This document shows positions 8,094-64,000 of a stretch of DNA of 64,000 nucleotides, one piece after another. The position numbers were made by a program, and so were the translations under genes. The notes below the pieces were generated by a model. It had not been told where the DNA came from. It did no database searches and saw only the letters and a program-made list of their open reading frames with translations. This DNA comes from an uncultured Chloroflexia bacterium (GTDB lineage: Bacteria > Chloroflexota > Anaerolineae > Anaerolineales > UBA11579), in contig CAVROH010000012.1 of NCBI GenBank assembly GCA_963722735.1, positions 103,735 to 167,734 on the forward strand, written 5' to 3'. The stretch's first letter is position 1; every line of letters starts with the position of its first letter.

Positions 8094-8280
8094 GCGAGAC
8101 TGGCAATAATGATAGAAACCTGATTTCTCATCCTTTAATTGTTTCGACAGAGATTCACCTTCCGCAATAAATTCGCGCAACAAAGCACGAACCTCCCTTC
8201 GGAGTTGAAGACGGGCGTATTTAGGTGCGCCGCAGGCGGACTTTTATTGTGTGGGTCGATTAAGTCGGCACAATACAAGA

Positions 8281-8517: not shown

Positions 8518-8613
8518 TGGGGTTCCTCCGTGATGGCAAAAGCATGGTCGCTGCTTCAAATCATGCTTAGGTTTAGCTGAGATTATACTACTACTCGGTG
8601 CTACAATAGCGGT

Positions 8614-10498: not shown

Positions 10499-10507
10499 GA
10501 GGATGAG

Positions 10508-12741: not shown

Positions 12742-12760
12742 GCATGCTCCTTATGCAGAA

Positions 12761-33495: not shown

Positions 33496-35193
33496 ATGAA
33501 TTTTATTGGCAAAACGCTAACCCATCCTGTTATTCAACATGCCCAGCAGTCGCCGGATGCCACCACCCTGATTATGATCAACCAGGATGGCAGCGAGAAC
33601 GTGATCACGGCAGCCGAGTTTGATTGCCAGGCGGCTGAGTTTGCCCGTACCCTGAAGCAGTTTGGGGTTGGCCCTGAAGACCTGGTGATCCTGGTGCTCA
33701 AGCACTCCGAGGTGCTGCTATTTGCTTTCTGGGGGGCATTGTATCTGGGCGCGATCCCATCGATCTTCCCCTTCCTGACCGAAAAGCTGGACCCCGAATT
33801 GTATCTGCAGCGGGTCAAAGCCCTGGTGACCAACGAAAGCGCCAAAGCGGTGATTACCTACCCGGAATTCAAGCAGGAATTGACCGATCTGCTCTCTGAG
33901 GCAGGCTGCCGGGTGATCGGTACCGATGAGGTCTCAGCCACTGCCGCCGAGGACGGACAGCCGGAAGATTTCTGGCAGGAGCCGTCCGGGGACAAGATCG
34001 CCTTCCTGCAGCACAGCAGCGGGACCACCGGTCTGCAAAAGGGGGTGGCGCTCTCACACCGCTCAGTCCTGAATCAGATCGCTTCATATAGGGAAGCGAT
34101 CGAGCTGAATGATGAGGATGTGATCGTCAGTTGGCTGCCGCTTTATCACGATATGGGCCTGATCGCCGGATTCGTGCTGCCGATCGTGACCGGCGTCCCG
34201 CTTGTGCTGATGTCTCCGTTCCACTGGATCCGGGACCCGAAGATATTATTCAAAGCGATTGACAAGCACAAAGGCACCCTGTGCTGGCTGCCGAACTTTG
34301 CTTACAACCACATGGCGCGGGTTGCGCGTCCCTCTGCTCTGGAAGGGTTGGATCTAAGCTCCTGGCGGGCGACGATCAACTGTTCCGAACCGGTCTATCA
34401 CCAGAGCCATCAGGTGCTGCTGGAAAAGCTCTCACCTTACGGATTGCGCGAAGAAGCGCTGTCGGTCTCTTATGCGATGGCGGAGAACACCTTTGCCGTC
34501 ACCCAGACAAAGATGGATGAGCCGCCCAACGTGGATTGGGTTGAGATCGCCGCCTTGCAGGGTGATGGGAAGGCGATTCCGGCGGAGGCTGGTACAGCCG
34601 GCGCGGTGGCGATGGTCAGTTGTGGCGGCCCGATCAAGGGCACGGAGATCGCCATTGTAGATCCGGATCGAAATGAACTGCCCGAACGCCGGGTGGGTGA
34701 GATCAAGCTGCGTTCCAACTGCATGCTGACCGAATATTACAAGCGCCCGGGGATCACCGCTGAGGCGATTGTGGATGGCTGGTATCACACCGGGGATATG
34801 GGTTACATTGTCGATGGGGAACTCTACATCACCGGCCGCATGAAGGATCTGATCATTGTTGGCGGGAAGAACATATACCCTCAGGATCTGGAGGCAATCG
34901 CCAACCACATCCCGGGAGTCTATCCGGGGCGGGCGGTAGCTTTTGGTCTGGTCGATGAGCGCATCGGCTCTGAAGTCATCGTGATGGTGGCGGAATTGAA
35001 GTCCGATCTGGATGGCGTTACCCCGGAAGAGATCGAGCGCGAGCTGCGTAAGCAGGTGGTAGCCACAACCGAAGTGACCCTGGCAGATGTGCGTCTGGTG
35101 GAAGAGCGCTGGGTGATCAAGACCTCTAGCGGCAAGATCGGCCGGGCCGATAACCGCGAGAAATATTTGAAGCAGTTCAGGAGCCATGGATAA
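33496..35193 (+). CDS. fatty acyl-AMP ligase (FAAL-type ANL adenylating enzyme)
   Basis: LQHSSGTTGLQKGV, LPLYHDMGL, YHTGDMGY and KTSSGKIGR. No thioester-forming partner is adjacent. Confidence 0.8.
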   Translation: MNFIGKTLTHPVIQHAQQSPDATTLIMINQDGSENVITAAEFDCQAAEFARTLKQFGVGPEDLVILVLKHSEVLLFAFWGALYLGAIPSIFPFLTEKLDPELYLQRVKALVTNESAKAVITYPEFKQELTDLLSEAGCRVIGTDEVSATAAEDGQPEDFWQEPSGDKIAFLQHSSGTTGLQKGVALSHRSVLNQIASYREAIELNDEDVIVSWLPLYHDMGLIAGFVLPIVTGVPLVLMSPFHWIRDPKILFKAIDKHKGTLCWLPNFAYNHMARVARPSALEGLDLSSWRATINCSEPVYHQSHQVLLEKLSPYGLREEALSVSYAMAENTFAVTQTKMDEPPNVDWVEIAALQGDGKAIPAEAGTAGAVAMVSCGGPIKGTEIAIVDPDRNELPERRVGEIKLRSNCMLTEYYKRPGITAEAIVDGWYHTGDMGYIVDGELYITGRMKDLIIVGGKNIYPQDLEAIANHIPGVYPGRAVAFGLVDERIGSEVIVMVAELKSDLDGVTPEEIERELRKQVVATTEVTLADVRLVEERWVIKTSSGKIGRADNREKYLKQFRSHG

Positions 35194-38338: not shown

Positions 38339-39196
38339 ATGGAACAAAACCTGACAACAACCTCTCCGGAAAGATCGGAGCGCGAGGTGATCCTCAAGCC
38401 GACCAAGGGCTGGATCTCTCTCAATTTGAGAGACCTGTGGCTCTACCGTGAGCTGGTCTATTTCCTTACCTGGCGGGATATCCTCGTCCGTTATAAGCAG
38501 ACCCTGCTGGGCGCGGCCTGGGCGATCATCCAACCATTGATGCAGATGGTGGTCTTTAACTTCCTGTTCGGCAATATGGCCGATATACCCACCGGGGAAG
38601 TGCCGCGCACGATCTTCACCTTCTCCGCCCTGCTGCCGTGGAACCTGTTCTCCAAGGCGCTCAGCGATGCCAGCCGTTCGCTGGTTTCCAGCCGCGGGAT
38701 GATCACCAAAGTGTACTTCCCCAGGCTGGTGATCCCGCTGTCCTCGATTCTCAGCGGGCTGGTCGATTTCCTGATCGCGGCTGTGATCCTGGCAGGGATG
38801 ATGATCTATTATCAGGTCAAGATATCGGCGGTGGCATGGCTGCTTCCGCTGGTGATCCTGTTCGTTCTGATCCTGGCCCTGGGTGTGGGGTTGTGGTTCT
38901 CCGCCTGGAATCTGCATTACCGGGATGTGCAGTATTTTGTCCCCTTCCTGACCCAGTTCTGGCTGCTGGCTTCTCCGATCGCCTATCCGCTCAGCGAGAT
39001 TCCCGAACAGTGGCAGACCCTGTATATGCTCAACCCAATGGTTGGGGTGGTGGAAAGCTTTCGTTGGGCGCTGGTGGGTGGAGACCCGGTGCCAACCTTT
39101 GCACTGGTCTCCACCGGGGTGATCAGTCTGGTTGTTTTGGTCAGCGGCCTGTTCTACTTCCGCCGCATGGAACGCACATTCGCGGATATGGTGTGA
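38339..39196 (+). CDS. wzm: ABC-2 type polysaccharide export permease
   Basis: 285 aa with 6 TM helices. The N-terminal LWxYRELxxxLxxRDIxxRYKQTxLG motif is typical of Wzm/TagG/KpsM. Confidence 0.85.
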   Translation: MEQNLTTTSPERSEREVILKPTKGWISLNLRDLWLYRELVYFLTWRDILVRYKQTLLGAAWAIIQPLMQMVVFNFLFGNMADIPTGEVPRTIFTFSALLPWNLFSKALSDASRSLVSSRGMITKVYFPRLVIPLSSILSGLVDFLIAAVILAGMMIYYQVKISAVAWLLPLVILFVLILALGVGLWFSAWNLHYRDVQYFVPFLTQFWLLASPIAYPLSEIPEQWQTLYMLNPMVGVVESFRWALVGGDPVPTFALVSTGVISLVVLVSGLFYFRRMERTFADMV

Positions 39197-39205
39197 GGTG
39201 AGAAC

Positions 39206-40479
39206 ATGGGCAATATAGTCGTTAAAGCAGAGAATTTAGGTAAAAAGTACAAGATTGGAGCGGTGGTTGACCGTTCTCCCACGCTGCGCGATGCGATAGT
39301 CCGGGCGGCAAAACGCCCGGGAGAGATCCTGCGCGGAGAATCGCCTCCGAAGACGGAAATTATCTGGGCGCTGCGGAATGTATCCTTTGAGGTTGAGCAA
39401 GGCCAGGTGCTGGGCGTGATCGGACGCAACGGGGCCGGCAAGAGTACGCTGCTAAAGCTGCTCTCCCGGATCACCGAGCCATCAGAGGGCTATGCCCGCA
39501 TCACCGGCCGGGTGGGTTCCCTGCTGGAGGTGGGTACCGGATTCAATCCGGAGCTGACCGGGCGGGAGAATATCTTCCTGAACGGGGCCATTCTGGGGAT
39601 GCGCCGCAATGAGATCGCGAGTAAGTTCGACGAGATCGTGGAGTTCTCCGGGGTGGAGAAGTTCATCGAAACCCCGGTGAAGCGCTATTCCTCCGGGATG
39701 TACCTGCGGCTGGCTTTCTCGGTGGCGGCGCATCTGGAACCGGAGATCCTGGTGGTGGATGAGGTGCTGGCGGTCGGGGATGCTGAATTCCAGCGCAAGT
39801 GCTTGGGCAAGATGAGCGAAGTCGCCGGCGAAGGGCGTACGGTGCTGTTCGTCAGCCACAACATGTCTGCTGTCATGCGGCTGACCGATGAATCCATCGT
39901 ACTGGAAGGCGGCGAGATGGTTTTTCGCGCCCCAACCCAGGAAGCCGTGGAATATTATATGTCCTCGGGCTTTTCCCAGTCCAGCGAACGGCGCTGGAAA
40001 GCGGATGAGATCCCCGCATCGGCCAAACCTTTCCGCCCGATCTCCGTGCGGGTGATTGACCCCGCGGAGAAATAGGTGATGTGGTCCGTTCGATCGAGCC
40101 GCTGACTGTGGAAATGGAATATGAGCTGGATGAGGAAATCCAGGGCTTGCGGGTGGGTATTTATCTGATCACCATTCGGGGTGACTTGGTTTTCACCTCG
40201 TTCGATACCGATTCTGGTGAGGAATACGAGAAGTACGGTGTTCGTCCCAAGGGACGTTATATCAGCCGCTGCCAGATCCCGGCCGATTTCTTCAATGAAG
40301 GCCAGTATGTGTTGGGGATCAATGCTTCCTCCTTCCGGGTGAAGCGCTACTTCCAGGATGAGCACGCCCTGACCTTCTCGGTGGATCCGATGGGCGCACC
40401 GGGTAAGCAGTGGCCGGAGACCCGCATGGGCACTGTCCGCCCGCGCCTGAACTGGAAGATAGAGGAACAATTTGAATGA
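39206..40479 (+). CDS. wzt: polysaccharide ABC exporter ATPase with a C-terminal carbohydrate-binding (Wzt_C-like) domain, frame-interrupted at about 40066
   Basis: Walker A GRNGAGKST, signature YSSGM and Walker B ILVVDE. ORF 40081..40479 is the beta-sandwich C-domain. Restoring one G (GCGGAG to GCGGGAG) gives ...VIDPAGEIGDVVRSIEPLTVEMEY.... Confidence 0.85.
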
Positions 40480-42062: not shown

Positions 42063-42118
42063 AGATGATCGGGCCTGAGCGGATCAGGGAATAACAAACC
42101 AACTCTTTGGAGAGATTT

Positions 42119-43132
42119 ATGAACTGGAAAAAATCAACAGTGCTGGTGACCGGCGGGACCGGGTCGTTTGGCAAGAAATTCATCAAGTCGATGCTGGAAA
42201 ATCAGCAAGCAGAGAAGGTGATCGTCTTCAGCCGGGATGAGCTTAAACAGCACGAAATGCGCATGGCCGGTTTCAACCAGGCCAACCTGCGCTACTTCAT
42301 CGGTGACGTGCGCGATCAGGACCGTCTGCGCCGCGCAATGCAAGGCGTGGATGTGGTTGTTCATGCGGCTGCCCTCAAGCAGGTGCCGGCGTGTGAATAC
42401 AACCCCAAAGAAGCGATCAAGACCAATATCAACGGGACCAGCAATGTGGTTGATGCCGCCATGGATGCCGGTGTGAAGAAGGTGCTGGCCCTGAGCACGG
42501 ATAAGGCCGTCAACCCGGTGAACCTGTACGGCGCCACCAAGCTGGCCGCCGAGAAGCTGGCAGTCCAGTCGAATGCCTATGCCGGCGGACCGAGACGCGC
42601 ATCTCCTGTGTGCGCTACGGCAACGTGGTCGGCAGCCGGGGGAGTGTGGTGCCCATGTTCCTGCAGCAGCGCGATAGCGGCGCCGGCAAATTGACCGTCA
42701 CCGACGAGCGCATGACCCGCTTCTGGATCACCCTGGAGCAGGGCGTGGCTTTCGTGATCCGCTGCATCGAGCAGATGCACGGCGGCGAGGTGTTCGTGCC
42801 CAAGATCCCCAGCACCACGATCGTGGACCTGGCCAGGGCGATTGCCCCGGATGCCGAGATGGAGTTCATCGGCATCCGCCCCGGCGAGAAGCTGCACGAG
42901 GTGCTGATCTCTGAGGATGAGGCTCGCTCCACCGTGGAGTTGGACGATATGTACGTCGTCCAGCCGGCTACCTCTCCGTGGTTTGGTTACGAGTGGGAGA
43001 AATCACGGCAAAAAGCTGGAAGATGACTTCCGCTATGCCTCCAACACCAATGATGAGTGGCTGACGATGGAAGAGATCAAGGCGATCGTCGCCCCGATCG
43101 AAGAAGAGTATCTGACAGGGAAATTGTTCTGA
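42119..43132 (+). CDS. UDP-GlcNAc 4,6-dehydratase (PseB/FlaA1/FnlA/CapE family), two frame breaks (about 42586-42590 and about 43003-43015)
   Basis: VTGGTGSFGK, NLYGATKLAAEK, then VRYGNVVGSRGSVVPMF...GEVFVPKIPS, then KKLEDDFRYASNTNDEWLT. Three ORF-track pieces (42107, 42610, 42917) join. Confidence 0.85.
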
Positions 43133-44046
43133 TGAAGATCCTGATCACCGGCTCCAGCGGATTGCTGGGGCTAAACCTGGCGCTGGAGCTGTCTGCCGAT
43201 CATCAGGTTGTCGGCGCAGACCGTAATCTGCTGGCGTCAAAGCCTTATTTTGAGTCGGTGGGTGTAGATCTGCTGGCTCCTGATGCGGTCGTGCGGCTGA
43301 TGGATGACATCCGGCCGGATGCGGTGATCCATTGTGCTGCGCTGGCTAATATAGATGCTTGTGAGAGCGATCCGGAGGTGGCACAGCGCTTGAATGCCTG
43401 GCTGCCTGGTGAGATTGCCGCCCGCTGCGCCGAACACGGGGCCCAACTGGTGCACATCTCCACGGATGCAGTTTTTGATGGCAAGGTTGGCGGCTACACT
43501 GAGGAAGACACCCCCAATCCGCTGAGCGTGTATGCCCAGACCAAGCTGGACGGTGAGGAATCGGTCTTCTCGGCGATGCCGGAGGCAGCCGTCACCCGGA
43601 TCAATATTTTTGGCTGGAGCGCAACGGCCAACCGCAGTCTGGCGGAATTCTTCTATTACGGGCTGGCTGCCGGGAAGCCTCTGAAAGGCTTCACCGATGT
43701 ATGCTTCTGCCCGTTGCTGGTCGACGACCTGGCGGGTGTCTTCGCCCGGATCTTTGAGAAGCAGCTCAGCGGGTTGTATCACCTGGTCAGCCCGGTGGGA
43801 TTGAGCAAGCACGAGTTTGGTGTGCGCATCGCCGAGATGTTTGGCTTCGACCCGGCAGTCATCGAGCCGGTCAGGGTGGCCGATTTTGGCCTCAAGGCGG
43901 CTCGCTCGCCCCTGCTGACCCTGGATACGAGCAAGTTGAGTCAAGCGCTGGGCCAACCGCTGCCGGATGTGTTTGACGGGCTGGAGCGTTTCTATCAGCT
44001 TCACCAGCAGGGCCACCCTGAAAAGCTAAAGGCGATGCTAGGCTAG
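43132..44046 (+). CDS. RmlD-like NAD(P)-dependent sugar reductase
   Basis: Internal ATG 43132 (TGATG overlap with the previous stop). MKILITGSSGLLG, YAQTKLDGE. About 304 aa. Confidence 0.75.
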   Translation: MKILITGSSGLLGLNLALELSADHQVVGADRNLLASKPYFESVGVDLLAPDAVVRLMDDIRPDAVIHCAALANIDACESDPEVAQRLNAWLPGEIAARCAEHGAQLVHISTDAVFDGKVGGYTEEDTPNPLSVYAQTKLDGEESVFSAMPEAAVTRINIFGWSATANRSLAEFFYYGLAAGKPLKGFTDVCFCPLLVDDLAGVFARIFEKQLSGLYHLVSPVGLSKHEFGVRIAEMFGFDPAVIEPVRVADFGLKAARSPLLTLDTSKLSQALGQPLPDVFDGLERFYQLHQQGHPEKLKAMLG

Positions 44047-44086
44047 TAGTTCAGCCGCAGGCTGAACGTCAGTCAGGAGAGAAACT

Positions 44087-45154
44087 ATGGACATCAAAAT
44101 TCTGGATAAAACCATTGGGCTGAACCACCCGACCTACTTCATCGCCGATATTGCCGCCAACCACGATGGTGACCTGGAACGGGCAAAATTACTGATCCGG
44201 CTGGCGAAAGAGGCCGGGGCGGACGCAGCCAAATTCCAGAACTTCCGCGCCCCAAAAATCGTCTCCGATTATGGTTTCAAGGCGATGGGCGGGCAGGTCT
44301 CCCACCAGGCGGCCTGGTCAAAATCGGTCTATGAAGTGTATAACGATGCCTCGATCCCCTTTGAATGGACGCCGATCCTTGCAGAAGAATGCGACAAGGT
44401 CGGGATTCATTATTTCTCCTCTCCCTATGATGATGACGCCATTGATATGCTTGATCCCTATGTGCCGGCTTACAAGGCGGGTTCCGGGCTGATCTCCTGG
44501 CCCGAGGCGATCGTCAGGATGGCTCAGAAAGGCAAGCCTGTGCTGATCGCCACCGGAGCGAGCAACCTGGGTGAGGTGGTCAACGCCATGGACAAGCTGA
44601 TGGCGGTCACCGACGAGATTGTGCTGATGCAGTGTAACACCAATTACACCGCCAGCCCGGATAATTATAACCATCTGCACCTGCGGGTGCTGGAAACCTA
44701 CAAGGCGATCTACCCGGATGTGATCCTCGGACTCTCGGACCATACCCACAGCCCGGCACCGGTGGTTGGGGCGGTGGCAATGGGCGCAAGGGTGATTGAG
44801 CGCCATTTCACCGACAGCAACGACCGTGAAGGCCCGGACCACAAGTTTGCCCTCAACCCGCAGACCTGGGCCGATATGGTCGAACAGGTGCGCCTGCTGG
44901 AGCGTTCCTTTGGCTCCCCAATAAAGCGGGTGGCCGACAATGAGAAGGATACCTATATCGTCCAGCGGCGCTGCCTGCGGGCGGCACGTGAGATCAAAGC
45001 CGGCGAGGTATTCACCGAAGAGATGATCGAGGTCCTCCGCCCGGCGACCCCCGGTGCATTGATGAGCTGGGACCTGGACAAGGTCATCGGGATGAAAGCG
45101 CGTGCCGCTATGCCCTTTGGCAAAGACCTGCGCTGGACCGACCTGGAGGAATAA
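44087..45154 (+). CDS. NeuB/SpsE-family sugar-PEP aldolase (nonulosonic/sialic-acid-synthase-like) with a SAF domain
   Basis: YFIADIAANHDGDLERAKLLI...AAKFQ, SDHT and a C-terminal SAF-like RRCLRAAREIKAGEVF...LRPATPG. Confidence 0.85.
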   Translation: MDIKILDKTIGLNHPTYFIADIAANHDGDLERAKLLIRLAKEAGADAAKFQNFRAPKIVSDYGFKAMGGQVSHQAAWSKSVYEVYNDASIPFEWTPILAEECDKVGIHYFSSPYDDDAIDMLDPYVPAYKAGSGLISWPEAIVRMAQKGKPVLIATGASNLGEVVNAMDKLMAVTDEIVLMQCNTNYTASPDNYNHLHLRVLETYKAIYPDVILGLSDHTHSPAPVVGAVAMGARVIERHFTDSNDREGPDHKFALNPQTWADMVEQVRLLERSFGSPIKRVADNEKDTYIVQRRCLRAAREIKAGEVFTEEMIEVLRPATPGALMSWDLDKVIGMKARAAMPFGKDLRWTDLEE

Positions 45155-53240: not shown

Positions 53241-55015
<1,775 letters not shown>

Positions 55016-55020
55016 TTTTT

Positions 55021-55064
55021 ATCCCGGGGCGAGCGATGGGTTTAGACCCCTGCTCGCCCCGGAT
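55021..55064. other. long GC-rich hairpin between the PAPS synthase and SDR genes
   Basis: ATCCCGGGGCGAGC ... GCTCGCCCCGGAT (one bulged C) around a 17-nt loop. No T-run follows. Confidence 0.4.
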
Positions 55065-55075
55065 AGGATTTAGCC

Positions 55076-55900
55076 ATGAATAAACTTCCAGAGATGTTCA
55101 GTCTGAAGGACCGCGCCGCGGTAGTCACTGGCGGGGCTGGCCTGCTGGGCAGGCAGTTTTGCCTCACTCTGGCAGAGGCCGGCGCATCTGTGGCGGTAGT
55201 GGATATCAATGCTGAGATGGCCGAGTTGGTTGCTGCCGAGATCAACGAATTGGGGGGGAAGGCGATCGCCATCCCGACCAATATCGCTGACCCGGATTCT
55301 GTCAACGCAATGACTGCTAAAACACTGAAATCCTTCGGCCGGTTGGATGTCCTGGTCAACAGCGCTGCCCTGGACCCGAAATTTGACCCGGACAGCATCG
55401 GTGAGCAGGGCGCCAATGCCTTTGAGACATTCCCGCTGGATGGCTGGCAGCAGGCTCTGGATGTCAACTTGACCGGGATGTTCCTGTGCTCGCAGGCAGC
55501 GGTTAAACCAATGCTGGAGCAGCGCAAGGGCGTGATCATCAACTTGTGTTCCACCTATGGCCTGGGCGGCCCGGACCAGCGTCTCTATCAGCGCAAAGGG
55601 CAGCCGCCGCAGTATAAGCCGGTCACCTACACCGTGACCAAGTCCGGCGTGATTGGGATGACCAAATATCTGGCCACCTATTACGGCACCCGCAATATCC
55701 GGGTGAATGCCCTGACCCCCGGCGGTATTTACAACAACCACGACCCGGAATTCACCATGGCGTATTCCTACCGCACCGCCATGGGGCGGATGGCAGAACA
55801 GGATGAGATGAACGGGGCTTTGCTGTTTCTGGCCTCGGATGCTTCCAGCTATATGACCGGCAATAACCTGATCGTGGATGGCGGCTGGACAGCCTGGTAG
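55076..55900 (+). CDS. SDR-family oxidoreductase
   Basis: VTGGAGLLG, NSAA and YTVTKSG (YxxxK). Confidence 0.85.
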   Translation: MNKLPEMFSLKDRAAVVTGGAGLLGRQFCLTLAEAGASVAVVDINAEMAELVAAEINELGGKAIAIPTNIADPDSVNAMTAKTLKSFGRLDVLVNSAALDPKFDPDSIGEQGANAFETFPLDGWQQALDVNLTGMFLCSQAAVKPMLEQRKGVIINLCSTYGLGGPDQRLYQRKGQPPQYKPVTYTVTKSGVIGMTKYLATYYGTRNIRVNALTPGGIYNNHDPEFTMAYSYRTAMGRMAEQDEMNGALLFLASDASSYMTGNNLIVDGGWTAW

Positions 55901-55917
55901 CGCATAACAAGGATTTT

Positions 55918-57168
55918 GTGATGGACGAGATCAGAGCAGGTGAGGTATTGGCCGTGATTCCGGCCCGGGGCGGCTCCAAGAGCATTCCTCGGAAAAATAT
56001 CCTGCCCTTTGCCGGTCATCCGCTGCTGGCCTACAGCATCGCGGCTGCCTTGCAGTCTGATCTGGTGACCCGTACGATCGTCTCTACTGATGATGAAGAG
56101 ATCGCCGCGGTGGCGCGGCAATATGGCGCCGAAGTGCCCTTCCTGCGTCCGGCCGAACATGCCCAGGATGCCACTCCGGACCTGCCGGTATTTGTGCATG
56201 CTGTTGAATGGTTCCGGGAAACGGAGGGATACTTGCCAGAGATGGTGGTCCAGCTGCGCCCAACCACACCGGTGCGTCCGCCCGGTTGTGTGGATGACGG
56301 GATCAAAGTATTACGCGCCCGTCCGGACGCCGATTCGTTGCGGGCGGTGGTGCCCTCAGGCCAGAATCCGCACAAGATGTGGCGGATCAATCGAAGATGG
56401 CGAGATGTCGCCGCTGCTGACTGTAGATGGAGATTGCCGAACCGTACAATGCTCCCCGCCAACACCTGCCGCCGACCTACTGGCAGACCGGCCACCTGGA
56501 TATCATCCGCCCGGCGACCTTGCTGGAGAAGAAATCGATGACCGGGGATGTGATCCTCTCATTGGTGCTGGACCCGCGCTACACGGTGGATATTGATACA
56601 TCCAAATGACTGGAACAAGGCTGAATGGCTGATCCGGCATGGCGGGCTGGATGTGGTTGTCCCCAAAAGCGCGGCTACGGCCTGCCCGAGAAACTGGACC
56701 TGATCGTCTTTGATTTTGACGGCGTATTCACCGATAACCGGGTCTGGGTGGACCAGAACGGGGTTGAACAGATCTGCCGCCAGTCGTGGTGATGGGATGG
56801 GCATTTCGCTGCTGAAGAAAGCCGGATTTGAAGCGATGGTATTCTCCACAGAAACCAACCCGGTGGTGGCTGCCCGCTGCAAGAAGATGAAATTGCCGGT
56901 CTACCAGGGCGTGGAAGCCAAAGGACAGGTGCTGCAAAATTTGCTGGAAGAAAAGGGTGTCCCCGGCGAGAATGTGATCTTTGTCGGTAATGATGTCAAT
57001 GACCTGCCGTGTTTCCCGCTGGTGGGCTGTGCTGTGGCGGTGGCTGATGCGCACCCGATGTGCCTGCCGCAAGCTGACCTGATGTTGAGTAAGCCCGGCG
57101 GTTTTGGCGCGGTGCGTGAATTGTGTGATCTGATCCTCAGCCATTATCCAGATAAGGAGAACTTAATT
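55918..57168 (+). pseudogene. acylneuraminate cytidylyltransferase (NeuA/CTP_transf_3) apparently fused to a HAD-IIIA (KdsC-like) sugar-phosphate phosphatase; 5 frame breaks
   Basis: VIPARGGSKSIPRKN... / EDGEMSPLLTVDG / EIAEPYNAPRQHLPPTYWQTGHLDII...DIDTS / NDWNKAEWLIRHGGLDVVVPK / KRGYGLPEKLDLIVFDFDGVFTDN / SRGDGMGISLLKKAGF...GNDVNDLP.... Successive frames are 1,2,0,1,0,1. After correction no stop separates the two domains. Confidence 0.7.
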
Positions 57169-58180
57169 ATGAAACGTGAAGTCAAGATTGGCGAATACCT
57201 TTGTTGGCGATGGTCATCCGACCTATATTGTTGGTGAGATCGGGATCAACCACAATGGCGATATGGAAATCGCCAAGCAGTTGATCGATGTCGCCAAATG
57301 GGCCGGCGTCAGATGCGGTCAAGTTCCAGAAGCGCACCCCCGAACTGTGCGTGCCTGAAGATCAGAAAGGCAAAATGCGGGAGACTCCCTGGGGCTATAT
57401 CTCCTATCTGGATTACCGCTACAAGGTTGAATTTGGCAAGGATGAGTACCAGGAAATTGATAACTATGCAAAGAAAAAGGGATGATGTGGTTTGCCTCTC
57501 CCTGGGATGAGAAATCGGTGGATTTTCTGGAAGACTTTTCGCCGGTGTGCTATAAAGTTGCTTCTGCATCCCTGACGGATGAGATCTTGCTGAAGCGGCT
57601 GAAGGAGACTGGCCGCCCGGCGATCCTTTCTACCGGGATGTCCACGGTGGAAGAGATCAAGAAAGCGGTATGCCCTTTTGGGTACAGATAATCTGGTGAT
57701 CACGCATACCACCAGCGCCTATCCCTGTGAACCGGACGAACTCAACCTGAAGATGATCCACACGCTTGAAGAGATGTTCCCCAGTGTGCCGGTGGGCTAC
57801 TCCGGACATGAGGTTGGTCTGGTGCCTTCGGCGGTGGCAGTGGCATTGGGCGCTTGCATGGTGGAGCGCCATATCACCCTGGACCGGGCATTATGGGGCA
57901 GTGATCAGGCTGCTTCTGTGGAACCCGGCGGGTTGAACAAGCTGGTGAAATATATTCGCACCACCGAGGCGGCATTGGGCACTGGCGAGAAAATGATCTA
58001 CGAAAGTGAGACTGTCTTCACTCTCCAAACTGCGCCGCAGCAATTGGCGTTCGCCACAAGGTAAATAAGAGGATTAGCCGGATGAACCGAGTTTGCCAAG
58101 ATGGCCCGAAGGGTGCAGCAGGAAATTTCCTCCTCCGCCGGGAAAAAAATGATCAATCTTGCCAGTGACGGGCTAGCTTG
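57169..58180 (+). pseudogene. second NeuB-family synthase, at least 5 frame breaks; 3' end approximate
   Basis: AAGGAG precedes ATG 57169. Pieces: VGDGHPTYIVGEIGINHNGDMEIAKQLIDVAKWAGV / AVKFQKRTPE... / MMWFASPWDEKSVDFL... / NLVITHTTSAYPCEPDELNL...GYSGHEVG...ERHITLD. The degraded SAF-like tail cannot be reconstructed cleanly. Confidence 0.7.
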
Positions 58181-58190
58181 ACCAGAGAGG

Positions 58191-59750
58191 TTGAGCAAGC
58201 TGCCAGTCCAGATCGCAGAAGATGCCGGCACGGTGGTGGTGTTCAATGCCAGTACCCGGCTGTCTAATTTCAGCCTGAATGCGGCTTATCTCACTGCTTT
58301 CATCCTGGGGGCTGCGCCTTTCCGGCTGGCGGGTGATCAATTTTGTCTGTCAGGGCGGGATGAGCCGCTGTCTGCAGGGCAGTTCAGAAAACCATCCATA
58401 CTGCAGCCTCCCTGCACGATCTGTGCATGGCATTACTCACATCATCTATATACTGGCGCCGAAGTAAGCGGCTTTGAGTATAAGCGTGATGAAGATTTGA
58501 GCGTTGTGCTGGATCGGGAAATCGGTTGCCGAAATGTCTGATCTGGTGTTTGAGGATCTGCCGTTGGGTGAGCTGGTGCTGCCCTCCATTCGCTGGCGGA
58601 TGCGCCGCCATCACCTGGAAGATGATCAGGCCACCTTGCTTTTGTTCCGGGAATTCATCCTCTCCGCCTACCACGTGGGGAAAGAGTTCAAGGCCTTGGC
58701 AGACCGGGAGCAGCCTGACCTGGTGCTGGTATTCAACGGGCAGATGTTCCCTGAGGCGATGGTCCGCTATTTGGCCCGCCAGCGGGGTATCAAGGTGATC
58801 TCCCATGAAACTGGCTACCAGCCGTTCACCGCTTTCATGACCACGGGAGATGCCACTGCCCGCAAAGTGTATCTCTCCGATGAAGAGCTCAATCTCTCAC
58901 TCCGGAAGAGAACAGAAGCTGGATATCTACCTGGAGAAACGCTTCCAGGGAGAGTTCAGCATGGCGGGGATCCAGTTCTGGCAGGAGATGAAAGATTTCC
59001 CGGTTGAGATCGAGCAGAAGCTGGAAGAATATCGACCAGATGGTGCCGATCTTTACCAATGTGATCTTTGATACCAGCCAGGCACATGCCAATAAGGCCT
59101 TTGCGCACATGTTCGACTGGCTGGATGCCACCCTGGAAGTGGTCAAAGCCACCCGGATACCTTGTTTGTACTGCGCGCTCATCCGGATGAACTGCGGCCA
59201 AATTCGATGAAGAAGTCCAAGGAAACAGTCCAGGCCTGGGTCGAGCGGCGCAGGGCAGCCGACCTGCCCAACCTGGTATTCATCCCGCCGCTCCAGTTTG
59301 TCAGCTCCTATGATCTGATCCAGCGGCCAAATTCGTGCTGGCCTATAATTCATCGATTGCGCTGGAATCTGTATTGCTGGGCGGTTGGCGCTGTGTGCCG
59401 GATGGGCCTGGTACGCGGAATATCCGACCGTGATCCTGCCTGCCACCCCGGAAGAATATTCTAAACAGCTCGGTGAACTGCTGGCGGCGGAGAGCGTAAT
59501 ACTGCCGGAAGAATTCCAACAGATGGCTCGCAGCCTGGTATACCATCAGAATTTCCGGGTCTCGATTCCATTTGACCGCCATCTGGAGCCGCATACGCTG
59601 CCCGGATTTGTGCGCATCAAAGAGTTTGAGGTCAGCGAATTGAATGACAGGGATGATCCCGCGATCAGGTCTCTCGTCGCCGGCATCCGAAATGATCTGC
59701 CGGTAATCAGGATTGAGGAGCAAGAAAATGGCAACAGAGGACAGACTTGA
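58191..59750 (+). pseudogene. paralog of the 40476..42062 Capsule_synth-like protein, about 8 frame changes
   Basis: Conserved segments appear successively in frames 0,1,0,1,2,0,2,1,0 (ORF-track pieces 58191, 58279, 58504, 58850, 59004, 59162, 59385). FVLRAHPDE...SYDLIQR..VLAYNSSIALESVLLG parallels FVLRIHPGE...TYDLVEIADLGLTYTTTVGMEMAMSG. Confidence 0.55.
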
Positions 59751-60630
59751 AATTCTCTCCAGTCCTTTGCTGGATGACAACCGGGAGCTGGTCAATGAGC
59801 TAAAACAGATCGTTGCCCAGATGCGGCTGGAATTTGGCTGGCATTATTTGCTCGATCTGGTTTGGATCATCAATAACCTGGATCTGGAGCGTCTGGAAGT
59901 GGCCCTGGATGCCGGCGCAGGCGAAGGCGTGCTGCAGTGGTATCTGGCCTCTAAAGGGGTCGATGTAATCAGCGTAGACCGGGACAGCCGGGCATTCCTG
60001 CCGCTGCATTATCGTAAGTTCTATCAGATCGAAGGGCTGAACCCAGGCGACCTGGCATCACCGGTAAGGACGCTGTTCCGCTTTGGCGGGCGGGTTGGCA
60101 GCTTCAGCCAGAAGCTGCGCGAATTTGGCCGCGATCTGGTTTTCTGGCTGCAAGGCACAAGTCATACAGCGAACAGCGGCAAAGTGATCTTCTATCACCA
60201 GGACCTGCGCACGCTGAAAAATATAGCCAGTAATACCGTCGATGTGGTAGTGGCGGTCTCTTCCCTGGAGCATAACGACCCGGACCAGCTGCCGGTGGTG
60301 GTGGCTGAACTGCTGCGCGTGCTTAAACCTGGCGGCAAGTTGGTGGCGACCCTCTCAACGACCGGCGATGCAGATTTGTACCATGAGCCTTCTTCCGGTT
60401 GGACGTATTGTGAGGACAGCATGCGCTCTTATTTCGGGCTGGAGGCTGATACCGTCTCGAACTACGACCAGTACCCGGAATTATTAGAAGGATTGAAAAA
60501 CTCTGCTGAACTGAAAGAAGGGCTGGCAAAATTCTACTTCCAGCGAGGCGAGGGCGGGATGCCGTGGGGCGTCTGGGACCCGCAGTATGTACCGATCGGA
60601 GTTTGCAAGGTAAAGCCGGTTGGAATTTAG
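59728..60630 (+). CDS. class I SAM-dependent methyltransferase
   Basis: GAGGAG precedes ATG 59728. Motif I LDAGAGEGVLQWYL. Post-II VVAVSSLEH...LKPGGKLV. Confidence 0.75.
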   Translation: MATEDRLEILSSPLLDDNRELVNELKQIVAQMRLEFGWHYLLDLVWIINNLDLERLEVALDAGAGEGVLQWYLASKGVDVISVDRDSRAFLPLHYRKFYQIEGLNPGDLASPVRTLFRFGGRVGSFSQKLREFGRDLVFWLQGTSHTANSGKVIFYHQDLRTLKNIASNTVDVVVAVSSLEHNDPDQLPVVVAELLRVLKPGGKLVATLSTTGDADLYHEPSSGWTYCEDSMRSYFGLEADTVSNYDQYPELLEGLKNSAELKEGLAKFYFQRGEGGMPWGVWDPQYVPIGVCKVKPVGI

Positions 60631-60643
60631 GAGGATGATGACC

Positions 60644-60889
60644 ATGGATACTCAAAATACTCTCGCAGAGAAAGTGCAGGCCGTATTGGCTGAGGCGCTG
60701 CGCGTGGAGGCAGGTCAGATCGGCCCGCAAACTGAATTCGGCGATCTGCCGCAGTGGGATTCGATGGGACACATGGAAGTGATGGTTGCCCTGGAGAAAG
60801 CCTTTGGCGTGGAGATCACCGCGGAAACGATCACGGAGCTGGTCACCGTGCCAGCGATCTGCGCCCACATCGAGGCCAGCGATGAGTGA
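60644..60889 (+). CDS. acyl/peptidyl carrier protein
   Basis: AGGAGG (60629-60634) is followed by three ATGs; 60644 has the best spacing. The phosphopantetheine-attachment context is LPQWDSMGHMEVMVALE. Confidence 0.8.
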   Translation: MDTQNTLAEKVQAVLAEALRVEAGQIGPQTEFGDLPQWDSMGHMEVMVALEKAFGVEITAETITELVTVPAICAHIEASDE

Positions 60890-62069
60890 GAAATTCGAAT
60901 TTACCCCAGTTGTCACCATCCCGGCGCATCTGATCGGGCAGATCAGGGCCAAGCTGGCTTACGTGGATGAGCAGATCGGTGAGGCGGAGATCGCTGCTGA
61001 TGGTGAGAAGATCACCCTGACCCTGCGCCGCGCGGTGGATGATGCCCACAAGACAAAAATCAAAGAGAAGGTCCAGCATGTGGTCGAGGAAATGGCCCGC
61101 GGGGCGATCCAGCCCAAAGTGGAGATCCTGGAAGACCACTCGCACCGCCCGACGTATTACGATCAGGATCCGATGGATGAGTTGCTGGCCCGCGGCGAGG
61201 TCTATGAAGAGGAGACCGGGGTATTTGTGTTTGGCCCGCTGGTCACCCGCTTGATGGACTTCTTTGAAAGCCGCTTCCTGATGCTGGCAGATGAATTTGA
61301 GGCCAAACCGTACCGCTTCCCGACGTTGATCTCCGCCAAAATGCTCGACCGGGTGGATTATTTCAGTGCCTTCCCGCATTCGCTGACATTTGCCACCCAC
61401 CTGCGCGAAGACCTGGATGTGATCAATCATTTCGCCCATGAAGCGCACTATGAAGACGACGGGCTGAATGCCCCGGCAGACAGCTTCTCAAAGTTCAAGG
61501 TGCTTAATTCTCCGGCGGTGTGCTATCACCTGTATTTCTCGCTGGCCGATCATCCTTTGCCGGACGGAAAGCTGATCGCCACCGCGGTGGGGCACTGCTT
61601 CCGCTACGAGTCCACTAATCTGACCTCGATGGAGCGGCTGTGGAACTTCACCATGCGTGAGGTCATCTTTGTCGGGCCAAAGGACTTTGTGCTGGAGAAC
61701 CGTGAGAAATCCCGCCAGTTCATGGAGAAGATCTTTGATCAGATCGGTCTGGTCTATCACGTGGAGACGGCCAACGACCCCTTCTTTGTCGGCGAGTTCC
61801 GCAAGCAGGCCGCCTTCCAGACTGCCTTCCAGTTGAAATACGAGATTCGGGCTGCGCTGCCGTTCAAGAACAGCACCCTGGCAGTCGGCTCCTATAACTA
61901 TCACCAGAACTTCTTCGGCCGCCACCTGGAGATCACCCTGCCGGATGGCGATCCGATCCATACCGGGTGCACCGCCTTTGGCCTGGAGCGGATCGTGTAT
62001 GCTTTCCTGGCGCAGTTCGGTTTTGACCAGGAGAACTGGCCCCAGGTGGTCAAGGATTGGCTGATATGA
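60882..62069 (+). CDS. class-II aaRS-like (atypical SerRS-core) amino acid:[carrier protein] ligase
   Basis: Internal ATG 60882 overlaps the ACP stop (ATGAGTGA). Class-II motif 2-like GHCFRYES and motif 3-like TGCTAFGLERIVYAF. Candidate Zn ligands (AVCYHL, FRYE, GCTAF) match methanogen-type SerRS homologs. No tRNA-binding coiled-coil or anticodon domain. Confidence 0.7.
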   Translation: MSEKFEFTPVVTIPAHLIGQIRAKLAYVDEQIGEAEIAADGEKITLTLRRAVDDAHKTKIKEKVQHVVEEMARGAIQPKVEILEDHSHRPTYYDQDPMDELLARGEVYEEETGVFVFGPLVTRLMDFFESRFLMLADEFEAKPYRFPTLISAKMLDRVDYFSAFPHSLTFATHLREDLDVINHFAHEAHYEDDGLNAPADSFSKFKVLNSPAVCYHLYFSLADHPLPDGKLIATAVGHCFRYESTNLTSMERLWNFTMREVIFVGPKDFVLENREKSRQFMEKIFDQIGLVYHVETANDPFFVGEFRKQAAFQTAFQLKYEIRAALPFKNSTLAVGSYNYHQNFFGRHLEITLPDGDPIHTGCTAFGLERIVYAFLAQFGFDQENWPQVVKDWLI

Positions 62070-62582
62070 CCGAAGGAAAAGTTAAAGTCACCTACCGGGT
62101 GGGCACGGAAGAAGATTACCCGGTGATCCAGGGATTTTACGAGAAGCTGGACGACGTTCTTCCGTGAGATCGATCTGGGGCTGCCGATGCCCGAGGATGT
62201 CGGCCAGGCCTGGCTGGATTCCTTTTCCCGGCTGTACGGCAAGTTCTCGCTGGTGCATATTGCCGAGATTGATGGCGAGATTGTCGGGTTCATGCTCTCG
62301 CGCATCAAGCGTGTGCCTCCCTATTGGGGCGGCGTGATGGTCGGGACGCTCAGCGATATGTGGATCGAGGAGAAAGGCCGCCGGTTTGGGATTGGGCGCA
62401 AGCTCTCCGAGCTGGCTCTGGACTGGCTGCGCGAGCAGGGCGTGCACTCGATCGAGATCCAGGTGCTGGCCCAGAATGACCCCAGTTGGAGTCTGTATGA
62501 GAGCATGGGCTTCAAACCAGAACTGCGGCAGGCCCGCCTGCTGTGGGAAGATTACGACACCTATAAAAATGCAAGAGGTTAG
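62066..62582 (+). CDS. GNAT-family N-acetyltransferase, frame-interrupted near 62151-62158
   Basis: ATGA overlap with the ligase stop. MTEGKVKVTYRVGTEEDYPVIQGFYEKLDD / FFREIDLGLPMPED...IVGFML...RRFGIGRKLSELALDWLREQG (acetyl-CoA pocket). Confidence 0.75.
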
Positions 62583-63354
62583 CCGGCAGGAAGTCATAGA
62601 TTGTTTAGCGGCAGTGGGCATTTCCAGGGGCGATGGCCTGCTGGTGCACTCTGCCTTGCAGTTCCTGGGGAGGCCGGCAGGCGGGTATGGGAGTGTATCT
62701 GGAAGCGCTGGACGAGGTGGTGGGCTTATCCGGGCCGGATGCCGGGGGGCAGATTGGCGGTGCCGACCTTTAATTTTGGCTTTGCGCATGGTGAAGACTA
62801 CGACCCGGCGACAGCCCCGGCCGTGGGGATGGGGGCCTTCTCCGAATTTGTGCGCCAGGATGTCCGAGCGCGCCGTACCACCCATCCGATGCAGTCCTTT
62901 GCGTTGATCGGCGACCAGGCGGAAGAACTGGCTGCCCTGGATACCCCCTCGGCATTTGACGATGGCTCCGCCGTGGACCGCATGCTGGAGATGGATGACA
63001 AATTACTGCTGCTGGGGGCCAATATCCAGGCGGTCTCGGCTTTACATTACAGCGAGCAGCGCGTCGGCGTTCCCTACCGCTTTTGGAAGGATTTTTCCGG
63101 CCAGGTGCTGCCGTGACGGGGAATGGCAAACCGCCGCATACCGCATGTACGTCCGCGATATGGAGATCGATGCCCGGTTGGAGATCTTTGAGGTCGAGGC
63201 AGAGATGAAAGCCCGCGGTCTGTGGCAGGAAGTCTCGCTGAATTACGGCAAGATCGCTGCCTGCCGGCTGCGCGATTTCATCCAGGTGACCAGCGAACTG
63301 CTTGAGGAAGACCCCTGGCGATTTGTGACCAATAAACCGGGAGGTACAGTATGA
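62569..63354 (+). CDS. AAC(3)-family (Antibiotic_NAT fold) aminosugar N-acyltransferase, three frame breaks (about 62683, the G6 run 62744-62749, about 63111)
   Basis: GISRGDGLLVHSALQFLGRPAGG / MGVYLEALDEVVGLSGPDAGG / RLAVPTFNFGF...RTTHPMQSFALIG...LLLLGANIQAVSALHYSE / RDGEWQTAAYRMYVRD.... Confidence 0.7.
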
Positions 63355-64000
63355 GCTCGATGATGGAACTGATCGGTGAATTGTGGTATCTGGCCCGCGA
63401 GCTGGTCTCGGATGAGTACGACCAGGCGCTGCGCCGTCTGGCAGAAGAAGTGCCGATGACGATCCACGAATATCCCAGCGGGATGCCGGTATGGTCCTGG
63501 ACGGTGCCGGAAAAGTGGACCTGCCATGAGGCAACCCTGGAGACGCTGGACGGCCGCCGGATCATTGACCGGGCCGATCATCCGCTGCATGTGGTCTCCT
63601 ATTCGCTGCCCTTTGAGGGCGTCGTCGAGCGGGAAGAGCTGCTGGCGCATCTGCACGTTCACCCGCAGGAACCCGACCTGATCCCCTTTGTATTCAAATA
63701 CTACCAGCGCGATTGGGGCCTGTGTCTGCCGCAGACCCTGCGGGATACCCTGGACGAAGACCAATACCGGGTGGTGATCCGCACCAGCTTCGAGCCTGGG
63801 ACCCTCAAGGTGGGGGAAGTGGCCGTGCCTGGTGAGGTCGAAGAGAGCTTCGTGCTGGCCGCCCATCTGTGCCATCCGGCCCAGGTCAATGATGACCTCA
63901 CCGGGGTGGTGGTGGGGCTGGACGTGATCCGCCGTCTGCTGGCCGGGCCAAAGCCGCACTTCACCTATCGCTTTTTAATCCTCCCGGAGACGATCGGCTC
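63351..64000 (+). CDS. DUF4910/DUF2172-type aminopeptidase-like domain protein, 3' end outside the window
   Basis: GGGAGG precedes ATG 63351 (ATGA overlap with the previous stop). The frame is open to the window end, so it is absent from the ORF track. MSSMMELIGELWYLARELVSDEY...VLAAHLCHPAQVNDDLTGVVVG...FLILPETIG resembles the family recalled from polysaccharide loci. Confidence 0.55.
   Translation, partial: MSSMMELIGELWYLARELVSDEYDQALRRLAEEVPMTIHEYPSGMPVWSWTVPEKWTCHEATLETLDGRRIIDRADHPLHVVSYSLPFEGVVEREELLAHLHVHPQEPDLIPFVFKYYQRDWGLCLPQTLRDTLDEDQYRVVIRTSFEPGTLKVGEVAVPGEVEESFVLAAHLCHPAQVNDDLTGVVVGLDVIRRLLAGPKPHFTYRFLILPETIG

Follow-up and report, generated by a model that had tools for sequence, protein, structure and literature searches.

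What does the catalytic core of an aminoacyl-tRNA synthetase (aaRS) do when its gene is joined to that of an acyl carrier protein (ACP) inside a polysaccharide operon? This question is raised by a five-gene cassette at 60644-64000 of a 64,000-nucleotide stretch of contig CAVROH010000012.1 (assembly GCA_963722735.1, positions 103,735 to 167,734) from an uncultured Chloroflexia bacterium; we refer to the whole stretch as the window. The cassette comprises an ACP, an aaRS-like amino acid:[carrier protein] ligase, a GNAT acetyltransferase, an AAC(3)-fold N-acyltransferase of the Antibiotic_NAT family (AAC3) and a DUF4910 protein. Overall, we propose, with a probability of roughly 55%, that it serves as a module for cytoplasmic N-acyl exchange on a nonulosonic (sialic-acid-like) sugar, in which an aminoacyl-carrier protein made by the aaRS-type enzyme serves as the donor.

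Positions are those of the window throughout; the interval 60560-64000 was read directly, and all five cassette genes lie on the + strand. The ACP gene (60644-60889) encodes 81 residues from MDTQ and matches PF00550 (E 4.6e-11); the serine of its WDSMGHM motif, Ser40, is the predicted phosphopantetheine serine and aligns with the DSL serine of solved ACPs. The ligase gene (60882-62069, 395 aa) starts before the ACP gene has ended, its ATG sitting within ATGAGTGA at 60882-60889, which gives an 8-nt overlap with the ACP stop. An earlier annotation made from the letters of the window, hereafter the original prediction, had described the pair as start/stop-coupled and had recognized class II synthetase motifs (GHCFRYES and TGCTAFGLERIVYAF) in the 395-residue protein; both descriptions were correct, and the arginines of the two motifs proved to be invariant. 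The GNAT gene (62066-62582, ~171 aa) overlaps the ligase gene by an ATGA at 62066-62069, the AAC3 gene (62569-63354, ~260 aa) starts 14 nt ahead of the GNAT stop, and a second ATGA at 63351-63354 joins AAC3 to the gene for the metallopeptidase-like protein, a DUF4910 protein with an inserted DUF2172 domain (63351-64000; PF16254 E 9e-33, PF09940 E 4e-31); the window contains only the first 216 of its ~440 residues. The GNAT and AAC3 matches (PF00583, E 9e-16; PF02522, E 1.8e-32) were obtained on frame-corrected reconstructions, the GNAT frame being broken near 62156. The predicted gene order and ATGA couplings were thus upheld, but the two acyltransferase reading frames are not intact and carry four insertions between them. 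As had been expected, the cassette runs beyond the window: the DUF4910 gene is cut at 64000, and relatives show more genes after it. Promoter and terminator scans returned background-level signals only.

The ligase is related to two groups of enzymes, and its position between them can be specified. In a sequence search, its closest solved relative was the amino acid--[ACP] ligase 1 Bll0957 (E 1.3e-34), followed by type-2 seryl-tRNA synthetase (SerRS; E 2.3e-18), and a 31-sequence family profile gave 2e-67 against Bll0957 and 1e-54 against type-2 SerRS. The class II core is recognized by PF00587 (E 9e-7). The Cys/Glu/Cys zinc-site pattern noted earlier was substantiated, as C214, E243 and C363 align to the zinc triad of Bll0957; these three residues, together with the motif 2 arginine R241 and the motif 3 arginine R370, are invariant in the 31 relatives, whose identities range from 27 to 62%. 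The AlphaFold (AF2) model of the protein (predicted local distance difference test, pLDDT, 95) matched Bll0957 in Foldseek with a template modelling (TM) score of 0.87, normalised to Bll0957, and a root-mean-square deviation (rmsd) of 3.0 Å. Among curated models, NCBIfam NF005479 for amino acid--[ACP] ligases ranks first with 161.9 bits (cutoff 357), ahead of the methanogen-type SerRS models PRK00960 (140.9 bits, cutoff 611) and TIGR00415 (110.9 bits, cutoff 489.55), whose alignments begin at model positions 148 and 121, respectively. Since the scores lie far below both sets of curated cutoffs, the ligase appears to form a separate, unnamed branch, which would account for the mixed public labels of its relatives ('hypothetical', 'seryl-tRNA synthetase' and 'aminoacyl--tRNA ligase-related'). 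Clustered at 50% identity, the branch yields ~430 clusters below E 1e-30, and most of those listed have a length of ~395 aa.

The N-terminal region qualifies one earlier claim. Roughly 95-130 residues stand ahead of the ligase core, and residues 32-95 match positions ~121-175 of the methanogen-type SerRS models; Foldseek alignments of the ligase model with type-2 SerRS extend over 386-430 columns (429 to 3W3S). The extension (residues 1-~130) is, as judged from these matches, probably a remnant of the SerRS tRNA-binding domain from which ~120 residues are gone. It is also a family trait, for among the 150 best representative clusters most have lengths of 390-410 aa and align from about residue 12. 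Therefore, the claim that the protein has no tRNA-binding domain holds for the first ~120 residues of the SerRS N-domain, which are absent, but not for the vestige of ~95-130 residues that is kept.

The cassette is strongly conserved. One genome per species was scanned with a pattern built from a 10-sequence subset, the 31-sequence alignment being too diverse for this purpose, and 183 relatives were retrieved; the counts below refer to the best 80 of the 183, while other phyla were sampled singly or via plasmids. The 19 proteins of an intact locus (L002) were mapped onto these 80 loci, with partner counts restricted to loci with enough flank, and the region past 64000 was viewed through two relatives of 87-90% identity (L001 and L002). 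All 80 loci belong to Chloroflexota, mostly to metagenome-assembled genomes (MAGs) of Anaerolineales, with ligase identities of 61-87% and all genes on the same strand. Their order is near-invariant (brackets mark members that may be absent): Sat/CysC, SDR, cytidine monophosphate (CMP)-transferase/phosphatase, NeuB, Capsule_synth-like protein, (methyltransferase), ACP, ligase, (GNAT), AAC3, DUF4910, sulfotransferases, GT2, a second CMP-transferase, 2-hydroxyacid dehydrogenase, SDR and an MptE-like protein. The ACP stands beside the ligase in 76 of 77 loci. Of 65 loci assessed downstream of the ligase, 62 carry AAC3, at least 57 DUF4910 and 55 GNAT; the methyltransferase upstream of the ACP occurs in most but not all of the 80 loci. 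On the basis of these counts, the core of the cassette is ACP, ligase, AAC3 and DUF4910, with GNAT and the methyltransferase as accessory members, and the linkage of ACP, AAC3 and DUF4910 to the ligase is beyond chance. The co-occurrence survey called for by the original prediction thus gave a positive answer in nearly all flanked Chloroflexota loci, and the operon context of the window and the 80 loci agrees with the view that the acyltransferases act with the ligase inside a glycan operon. The cassette had also been placed at the distal end of that operon; this was mistaken, because the relatives carry at least 8 kb of same-strand glycan genes after DUF4910 and the cassette lies in mid-operon.

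The neighbours of the cassette point to a nonulosonic acid. They include NeuB, a PseF-like CMP-transferase with a KdsC-like phosphatase, a BFO_1060-like glycosyltransferase, an MptE-like protein, sulfotransferases and glycosyltransferases. In L002, the orthologues match PseF (E 6.5e-47), KdsC (E 1.2e-33), NeuB_NnaB (E 9e-77) and PseI (E 2e-65), and the intact Capsule_synth-like orthologue of 547 aa matches PF05159 weakly and NF046086 (BFO_1060 family glycosyltransferase) with E 1.7e-13. Within the window, these upstream genes occupy the + strand from 53280 onwards: an ATP sulfurylase/adenosine 5′-phosphosulfate (APS) kinase with two frameshifts and an SDR (53280-55900), which provide 3′-phosphoadenosine 5′-phosphosulfate (PAPS) and redox steps for the same operon; a CMP-ulosonate synthetase fused to a KdsC-like phosphatase, then a NeuB-family synthase (55918-58064, both frameshifted); a frameshifted Capsule_synth/BFO_1060-like putative ulosonic-acid glycosyltransferase (58191-59750), only part of which is recovered by tblastn; and, directly upstream of the ACP, the optional class I S-adenosylmethionine (SAM) methyltransferase (59728-60630; PF08241, PF13649). 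Genes for a PseC/DegT aminotransferase, PseG and PseH were found neither in the window nor in the 80 loci, and a PseC-type aminotransferase was accordingly discarded as the source of the acceptor amine.

The two conserved partners downstream belong to families with informative relatives. The frame-corrected AAC3 protein scores 113 bits against PF02522 (cutoff 25), and keeps the HxSE motif (ALHYSEQR) with the catalytic His/Glu, which aligns with BA2930; its relatives in the PDB are BA2930, FrbF and AAC(3)-IVa, at E ~1e-15. Its score against the NCBIfam AAC_3 equivalog model, 79.9 bits for a cutoff of 270, places it outside that family of resistance enzymes. FrbF acts on a CMP-linked amine. As for DUF4910, the fragment in the window has the first two zinc ligands (CHPAQVND), and the full-length L002 protein matches 3K9T (CA_C2195) at E 2e-61 with the H/D/H zinc ligands aligned (CHP..ND, YHSSAD). 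The CA_C2195 family is single-zinc and lacks the catalytic Asp and Glu of M28 peptidases, and CA_C2195 itself lies in a modified-sugar operon with NeuB, Maf-like, ACP and 'aminosugar N-acetyltransferase' genes; the authors also proposed transacylation by DUF4910 (Das et al., PMC4000134). Cj1295, the DUF4910 protein of Campylobacter jejuni, is genetically required for Pse5(di-O-methylglyceroyl)7Ac and was proposed to cleave the N5-acetamido bond of pseudaminic acid, which would allow another acyl group to be added; Cj1296/7, which adjoins Cj1295, is listed as an N-acetyltransferase (Hitchen et al., PMC3068675). The description of DUF4910 as aminopeptidase-like in the original prediction therefore survives as M28-like homology but not as a peptidase role, since the non-peptidase active site (PMC4000134) and the Cj1295 genetics (PMC3068675) favor an amine-freeing enzyme.

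Relatives of both partners, and of the GNAT, occur in other settings. On an Agrobacterium plasmid, an AAC(3)-DUF4910 pair adjoins a complete pseBCFGHI cluster, in a 19-kb stretch whose incomplete PLSDB annotation lists neither an ACP nor a ligase; these AAC(3) and DUF4910 proteins match 70 and 66 of the 80 Chloroflexota loci, respectively. A DUF4910 homologue of 51% identity lies in a nonulosonic-acid cluster of Solidesulfovibrio. Homologous GNATs are start/stop-coupled to the ligase in two more distant loci, L093 (45% identity; ACP-ligase-GNAT-AAC3) and L094 (MBOAT-ACP-ligase-GNAT), and SbzI is a documented case of a GNAT whose acyl donor is tethered to a carrier protein (PMC11685415).

Homologies, conserved catalytic residues and gene linkage are established here, and from them we infer a putative sequence of catalytic steps. 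The ligase, by homology to enzymes active in vitro, would activate a small amino acid with ATP at its zinc site and form a thioester with the phosphopantetheine of the adjacent ACP. The optional GNAT may then N-acetylate the alpha-amine of the ACP-bound amino acid; we place its action on the donor because it stays coupled to the ligase in both AAC3 and MBOAT loci, where the acceptor must differ. DUF4910, as a single-zinc M28-like hydrolase, would free an amine by cleaving the N-acetyl group off the product sugar of the neighbouring NeuB and CMP-transferase genes, a role suggested by the Cj1295 genetics and by the lack of an aminotransferase nearby. The AAC(3)-fold enzyme could then move the (N-acetyl)aminoacyl group from the pantetheine thioester onto the freed amine, after which the sugar would be CMP-activated and installed into a sulfated glycan by the Capsule_synth/BFO_1060-like or MptE-like transferases, as their context indicates. 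The sole nitrogen on the local NeuB sugars would be the N-acetyl inherited from the hexosamine precursor, which fits an acyl swap. N-acetyl-alanyl legionaminic acid exists in nature (PMC7371886). The original prediction had an aminoacyl group loaded on the ACP and moved to an amino or hydroxyl group of the glycan. Its carrier-protein logic is kept here, but the polymer gives way as the target: the likely acceptor is the amino group of a nonulosonic acid precursor and not a finished extracellular polymer, since no MBOAT/DltB was found in the 64-kb window or within 10 kb of the ligase in the 80 relatives, and the output falls to a cytoplasmic N-acyltransferase of the AAC(3) fold and a metallohydrolase-like DUF4910 protein.

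As to the amino acid, 79 of the 80 Chloroflexota ligases carry HTGCxAFG, and throughout the wider ligase family only Ala or Gly occurs two positions past the third zinc ligand. Because the Chloroflexota enzymes have Ala at this position, as does the glycine-specific Bll0957, we name glycine as the candidate substrate, with low confidence. The A281G substitution in Bll0957 reportedly relaxes specificity towards alanine.

Several other explanations were weighed against the exchange module. The most basic is that the 395-residue protein is a divergent SerRS that charges tRNA and neighbours the ACP by coincidence. Relatives are indeed annotated as seryl-tRNA synthetase by the Joint Genome Institute (JGI), and the SerRS N-domain remnant is kept. 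However, the first ~120 residues of the methanogen-type N-domain are gone, the score is 141 bits against a cutoff of 611 for the methanogen-type model, the protein is closer to Bll0957 by both sequence and profile, the ACP is coupled in 76 of 77 loci, and no tRNA genes were found within the 64-kb window. We rejected a tRNA-charging SerRS on these sub-cutoff scores, the ACP coupling and the lack of a tRNA gene, and regard it as extremely unlikely. The assignment to the amino acid:[carrier protein] ligase type, already made in the original prediction, is in turn favored by sequence, profile and fold matches as well as by the same ACP and tRNA evidence, and we predict with considerable confidence that the ligase loads an amino acid on the adjacent ACP rather than charging tRNA. 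Where the amino acid goes next is a separate matter. In a Dlt-like route, the aminoacyl-ACP would serve a membrane transferase, and the amino acid would end up in ester linkage to hydroxyls of the completed, extracellular glycan. L087 and L094, relatives of 45-46% identity, do adjoin an MBOAT and an ACP, so the comparison with DltA/DltC made by the original prediction is apt for the ligase family; it does not suit the locus studied here. An MBOAT or DltB-like transferase had been anticipated past 64000, but with the MBOAT of L087 as the query, tblastn gave 0 matches in the window and within 10 kb of the ligase in the 80 relatives, MBOAT Pfam models matched none of the called genes of L001, L002, L004 and L006, and the invariant partners are the soluble AAC(3)-fold and DUF4910 proteins. 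A Dlt/MBOAT route was therefore rejected at this locus, where we consider it very unlikely.

Other schemes keep the same proteins but reassign their roles. The GNAT might cap the aminoacyl-ACP, AAC3 transfer the capped group to an amine that arose elsewhere, and DUF4910 uncap it to leave a free, positively charged aminoacyl group. A parallel for such protection and deprotection is the gamma-glutamyl protecting group in butirosin biosynthesis; the M20/M28 clan includes N-acyl-amino-acid deacylases, and the GNAT is ligase-coupled in three different contexts. This scheme is nevertheless unlikely: DUF4910 is retained in ~10 loci without GNAT, no aminotransferase to produce the amine was found in the window or the 80 loci, DUF4910 and AAC(3) stand beside a plain pse cluster on the Agrobacterium plasmid described above (no ACP or ligase annotated, with the same limit on its annotation), and loss of Cj1295 in C. 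jejuni abolishes the alternative N-acyl group entirely (PMC3068675). It is also conceivable that aminoacyl transfer falls to the GNAT or DUF4910 and that AAC3 simply N-acetylates the sugar or the amino acid from acetyl-CoA, given the carrier-bound donor of the SbzI GNAT (PMC11685415) and the transacylation suggested for DUF4910 by Das et al. (PMC4000134). We find this quite unlikely, as ~10 of 65 loci retain ACP, ligase, AAC3 and DUF4910 without a GNAT, and DUF4910 has no known acyltransferase features. Alternatively, the ACP-bound amino acid could be oxidised, deaminated or methylated on the carrier, in the manner of seryl-ACP to aminomalonyl-ACP, such that the final substituent is not an amino acid. 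Distant ACP-ligase pairs accompany proteins of the acyl-CoA dehydrogenase family and with a 3-hydroxyacyl-CoA dehydrogenase domain in polyketide synthase (PKS)/nonribosomal peptide synthetase (NRPS) clusters, rhizobial ligases accompany an acyl-CoA dehydrogenase and DUF1839, a methyltransferase lies upstream of the ACP here, and the group installed in C. jejuni is di-O-methylglyceroyl (PMC3068675). Such remodelling is decidedly improbable for this locus, whose conserved core has no acyl-CoA or hydroxyacyl dehydrogenase and whose only modifiers are the GNAT and the optional methyltransferase.

Notwithstanding, several observations weigh against our preferred explanation, a cytoplasmic N-acyl exchange fed by an aminoacyl-ACP. 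The ligase falls far under the curated NF005479 cutoff (161.9 vs 357 bits), and the low-confidence glycine prediction leans on what the A281G study reportedly found. The 80 close loci all belong to one phylum, so their synteny is partly inherited and is not independent evidence. A KdsC-like phosphatase with an adjacent NeuB fits a nitrogen-free Kdn/Kdo-type sugar as well as a Neu5Ac-type sugar. To our knowledge, AAC(3) enzymes work with acyl-CoA donors and not with ACP donors. The de-N-acetylase role of DUF4910 is a published hypothesis only, next to which the transacylation proposal of Das et al. also stands. In this window, moreover, two of the five cassette genes are out of frame, and for this clade both the catalytic roles and the acceptor sugar are read from sequence.

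The broken frames can probably be explained without loss of function. By DNA alignment with two relatives, single-base (+1) insertions were located near 62156 in GNAT and near 62686, 62751 and 63110 in AAC3, which interrupt the GNAT frame after 36 codons and split the AAC(3)-like gene across three frames. None of the four lies in a homopolymer run or recurs in L001 or L002, and the codons flanking them are 80-87% identical at the protein level to intact orthologues. L001, the 90%-identical relative, has indels of its own that differ from those of the window; L001 and several other relatives are long-read metagenome assemblies. In short-read MAGs, GNAT (170 aa, e.g. L002), AAC3 (258 aa) and DUF4910 (440 aa) are all intact. 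The upstream Sat/CysC, CMP-transferase/phosphatase, NeuB and Capsule_synth-like genes are also frameshifted, with pieces 64-92% identical to intact orthologues. Because the cassette insertions are private to the window, the L001 indels differ and the frames remain 80-87% identical to intact orthologues, the frameshifts are most likely assembly errors, and gene decay was considered unlikely as their cause. Across 53280-59750, where Sat/CysC occupies three frames while the SDR, methyltransferase, ACP and ligase nearby are intact, the pattern is clumped and resembles long-read assembly error.

Beyond Chloroflexota, the ligase appears in more varied surroundings. L087 (46% identity) has the order ligase-ACP-unknown-MBOAT-thioesterase (4HBT) at 8001-12903, and L094 (45%) has GT4-methyltransferase-MBOAT-ACP-ligase-GNAT at 5549-8661; both look like a Dlt-like system built on an aaRS paralogue. 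At 36% identity, L088 adjoins a carbamoyltransferase, and a Bacillus thuringiensis plasmid (L090) carries the ACP-ligase pair only. A Bacillus mycoides plasmid (L098, 34%; 4666-9134) places the ligase beside a BtrH-domain acyltransferase in a secondary-metabolite context, and a Streptomyces plasmid (L097, 33%; 5614-10483) places it in a PKS/NRPS cluster with a phosphopantetheine-binding protein, a member of the acyl-CoA dehydrogenase family and a protein with a 3-hydroxyacyl-CoA dehydrogenase domain, an arrangement that resembles aminomalonyl-ACP formation. On a Rhizobium gallicum plasmid (L096, ~26-27%; 5647-8967), the canonical, annotated amino acid--[ACP] ligase stands in the order ACP, acyl-CoA dehydrogenase, ligase and DUF1839, directly downstream of nifN/nifX/fdxB; the ligase/dehydrogenase pairing of Rhizobium is also annotated under matches in Azospirillum and Burkholderia plasmids. 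An ACP is likewise beside the ligase in L087, L090, L093 and L094. These varied contexts mark the ACP-ligase pair as a portable loading unit. A glycan role holds for the AAC3/DUF4910 and MBOAT clades and not for the whole ligase family, because ACP-ligase pairs of 33-36% identity lie in PKS/NRPS-like clusters; the clade of the window, with 80 glycan-linked Chloroflexota loci, is not one that occurs mainly in NRPS contexts. At somewhat less than even odds, we tentatively suggest that the unnamed branch is a general 'DltA-independent' means of loading amino acids for surface glycans, with either a cytoplasmic AAC(3)/DUF4910 N-acyl swap or extracellular MBOAT esterification as its output. The ACPs of the window, L093, L094 and L087 share WDSxxH around the pantetheine serine, which is absent from the B. 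thuringiensis and Rhizobium partners; this motif of the ACPs paired with the ligase branch may be a recognition signature.

Further features of the window and of its relatives were recorded in passing. The genes at 42107-45154 encode a true PseB homologue, which shares 59% identity with Agrobacterium PseB and is frameshifted, then an RmlD-like reductase and then a NeuB+SAF synthase. As PseB, a reductase and NeuB occur here with no PseC in the window, these genes suggest a second nonulosonic acid with a hydroxyl in the position of the 7-amino group of pseudaminic acid. The gene at 33496-35193 encodes a 565-aa AMP-binding (ANL) enzyme and is followed, up to 36754, by genes for a 522-aa protein without a Pfam match and a MarR regulator; the ANL gene lies in the polysaccharide region, 26 kb upstream of the cassette and outside it, and may represent a second acyl-activating step. 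An ABC-2 permease and ATPase pair of the Wzm/Wzt type at 38339-40075 indicates a glycan export route dependent on an ATP-binding cassette (ABC) transporter. The gene at 18679-20496 on the - strand encodes an ordinary threonyl-tRNA synthetase (class II core, anticodon-binding and tRNA_SAD domains) that has no relation to the cassette. In some of the relatives, NeuB is fused to SAF and AP_endonuc_2, a xylose-isomerase-like TIM barrel, in proteins of 628-634 aa (L004, 6222-8108; L006, 5246-7150), and loci of the L004 type have two tandem GNATs.

The loading of carrier proteins with Gly or Ala by amino acid:[carrier protein] ligases was reportedly demonstrated in 2010. The statement that the physiological role of this family is unresolved still applies, as the cellular use of the aminoacyl-carrier product was described as unknown in a 2022 review (PMC9437257). 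Our literature search, which was thin on subscription journals, found no publication linking these ligases to glycans. The cassette thus gives one ligase clade a conserved and testable role, that of a donor for N-acyl diversification of sialic-acid-like sugars, and if the more general suggestion for the unnamed branch is true, it would supply the missing physiological role of these enzymes. Activities are also proposed for two widespread orphans, DUF4910 (Cj1295) and the glycan-linked, non-resistance AAC(3) clade. Members of this clade bear the label 'AAC(3) family N-acetyltransferase' and the 'response to antibiotic' Gene Ontology (GO) term. In pathogens, the N-acyl groups of nonulosonic acids influence recognition by the immune system, binding of phages and assembly of flagella, so that the alanyl, glycyl or glyceroyl variants known there may owe their origin to the same enzyme logic. 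The cassette also illustrates clearly how nature has recruited the catalytic core of an aaRS to carrier-protein chemistry.

Compared with the Bll0957-type ligases of Bradyrhizobium and Agrobacterium (PDB 3MEY, 4H2S; NF005479), the window ligase has the same class II core, Cys/Glu/Cys site, motif 2 and 3 arginines and adjacent carrier gene, at a core identity of ~30% and with the TM-score (0.87) and rmsd (3.0 Å) given above. It is ~50 residues longer, with its vestigial SerRS N-domain, and its ACP has no detectable relationship to the rhizobial partner ACP; the contexts differ as well, the rhizobial order of ACP, acyl-CoA dehydrogenase, ligase and DUF1839 contrasting with a nonulosonic-acid operon that holds GNAT, AAC3 and DUF4910. 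With methanogen-type (type-2) SerRS (PDB 2CIM, 3W3S), it shares the zinc-dependent core, and the Foldseek alignment reaches the N-terminal region; unlike that enzyme, it does not have approximately the first 120 residues of the N-domain, is paired with an ACP and is not a housekeeping gene. The DltABCD and AlmEFG systems, the latter of which adds glycine to lipid A, follow the shared logic of an ATP-dependent ligase and a dedicated carrier protein for a surface glycoconjugate. In contrast, the window has an aaRS paralogue in place of an ANL adenylase and no DltB, DltD or LpxL-type transferase, and its chemistry is predicted to be the cytoplasmic N-acylation of a sugar precursor.

Closer in gene content are the clusters of C. 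jejuni (Cj1295/Cj1296-97) and Clostridium acetobutylicum (CA_C2195-2199), in both of which DUF4910/DUF2172 adjoins an N-acetyltransferase, as in the window. The C. acetobutylicum cluster also has an ACP, a methyltransferase and NeuB/Maf-type genes, as the window does in part, but it has an ATP-grasp ligase in place of the aaRS-like ligase; no aaRS-like ligase is reported in either cluster, and the acyl group in C. jejuni is di-O-methylglyceroyl. Finally, the window AAC3 belongs to the same fold family as AAC(3) and FrbF (Antibiotic_NAT) and keeps HxSE. Unlike the AAC(3) resistance enzymes, it lies in a glycan operon, and its predicted donor and acceptor are an aminoacyl-ACP and a nonulosonic-acid amine.

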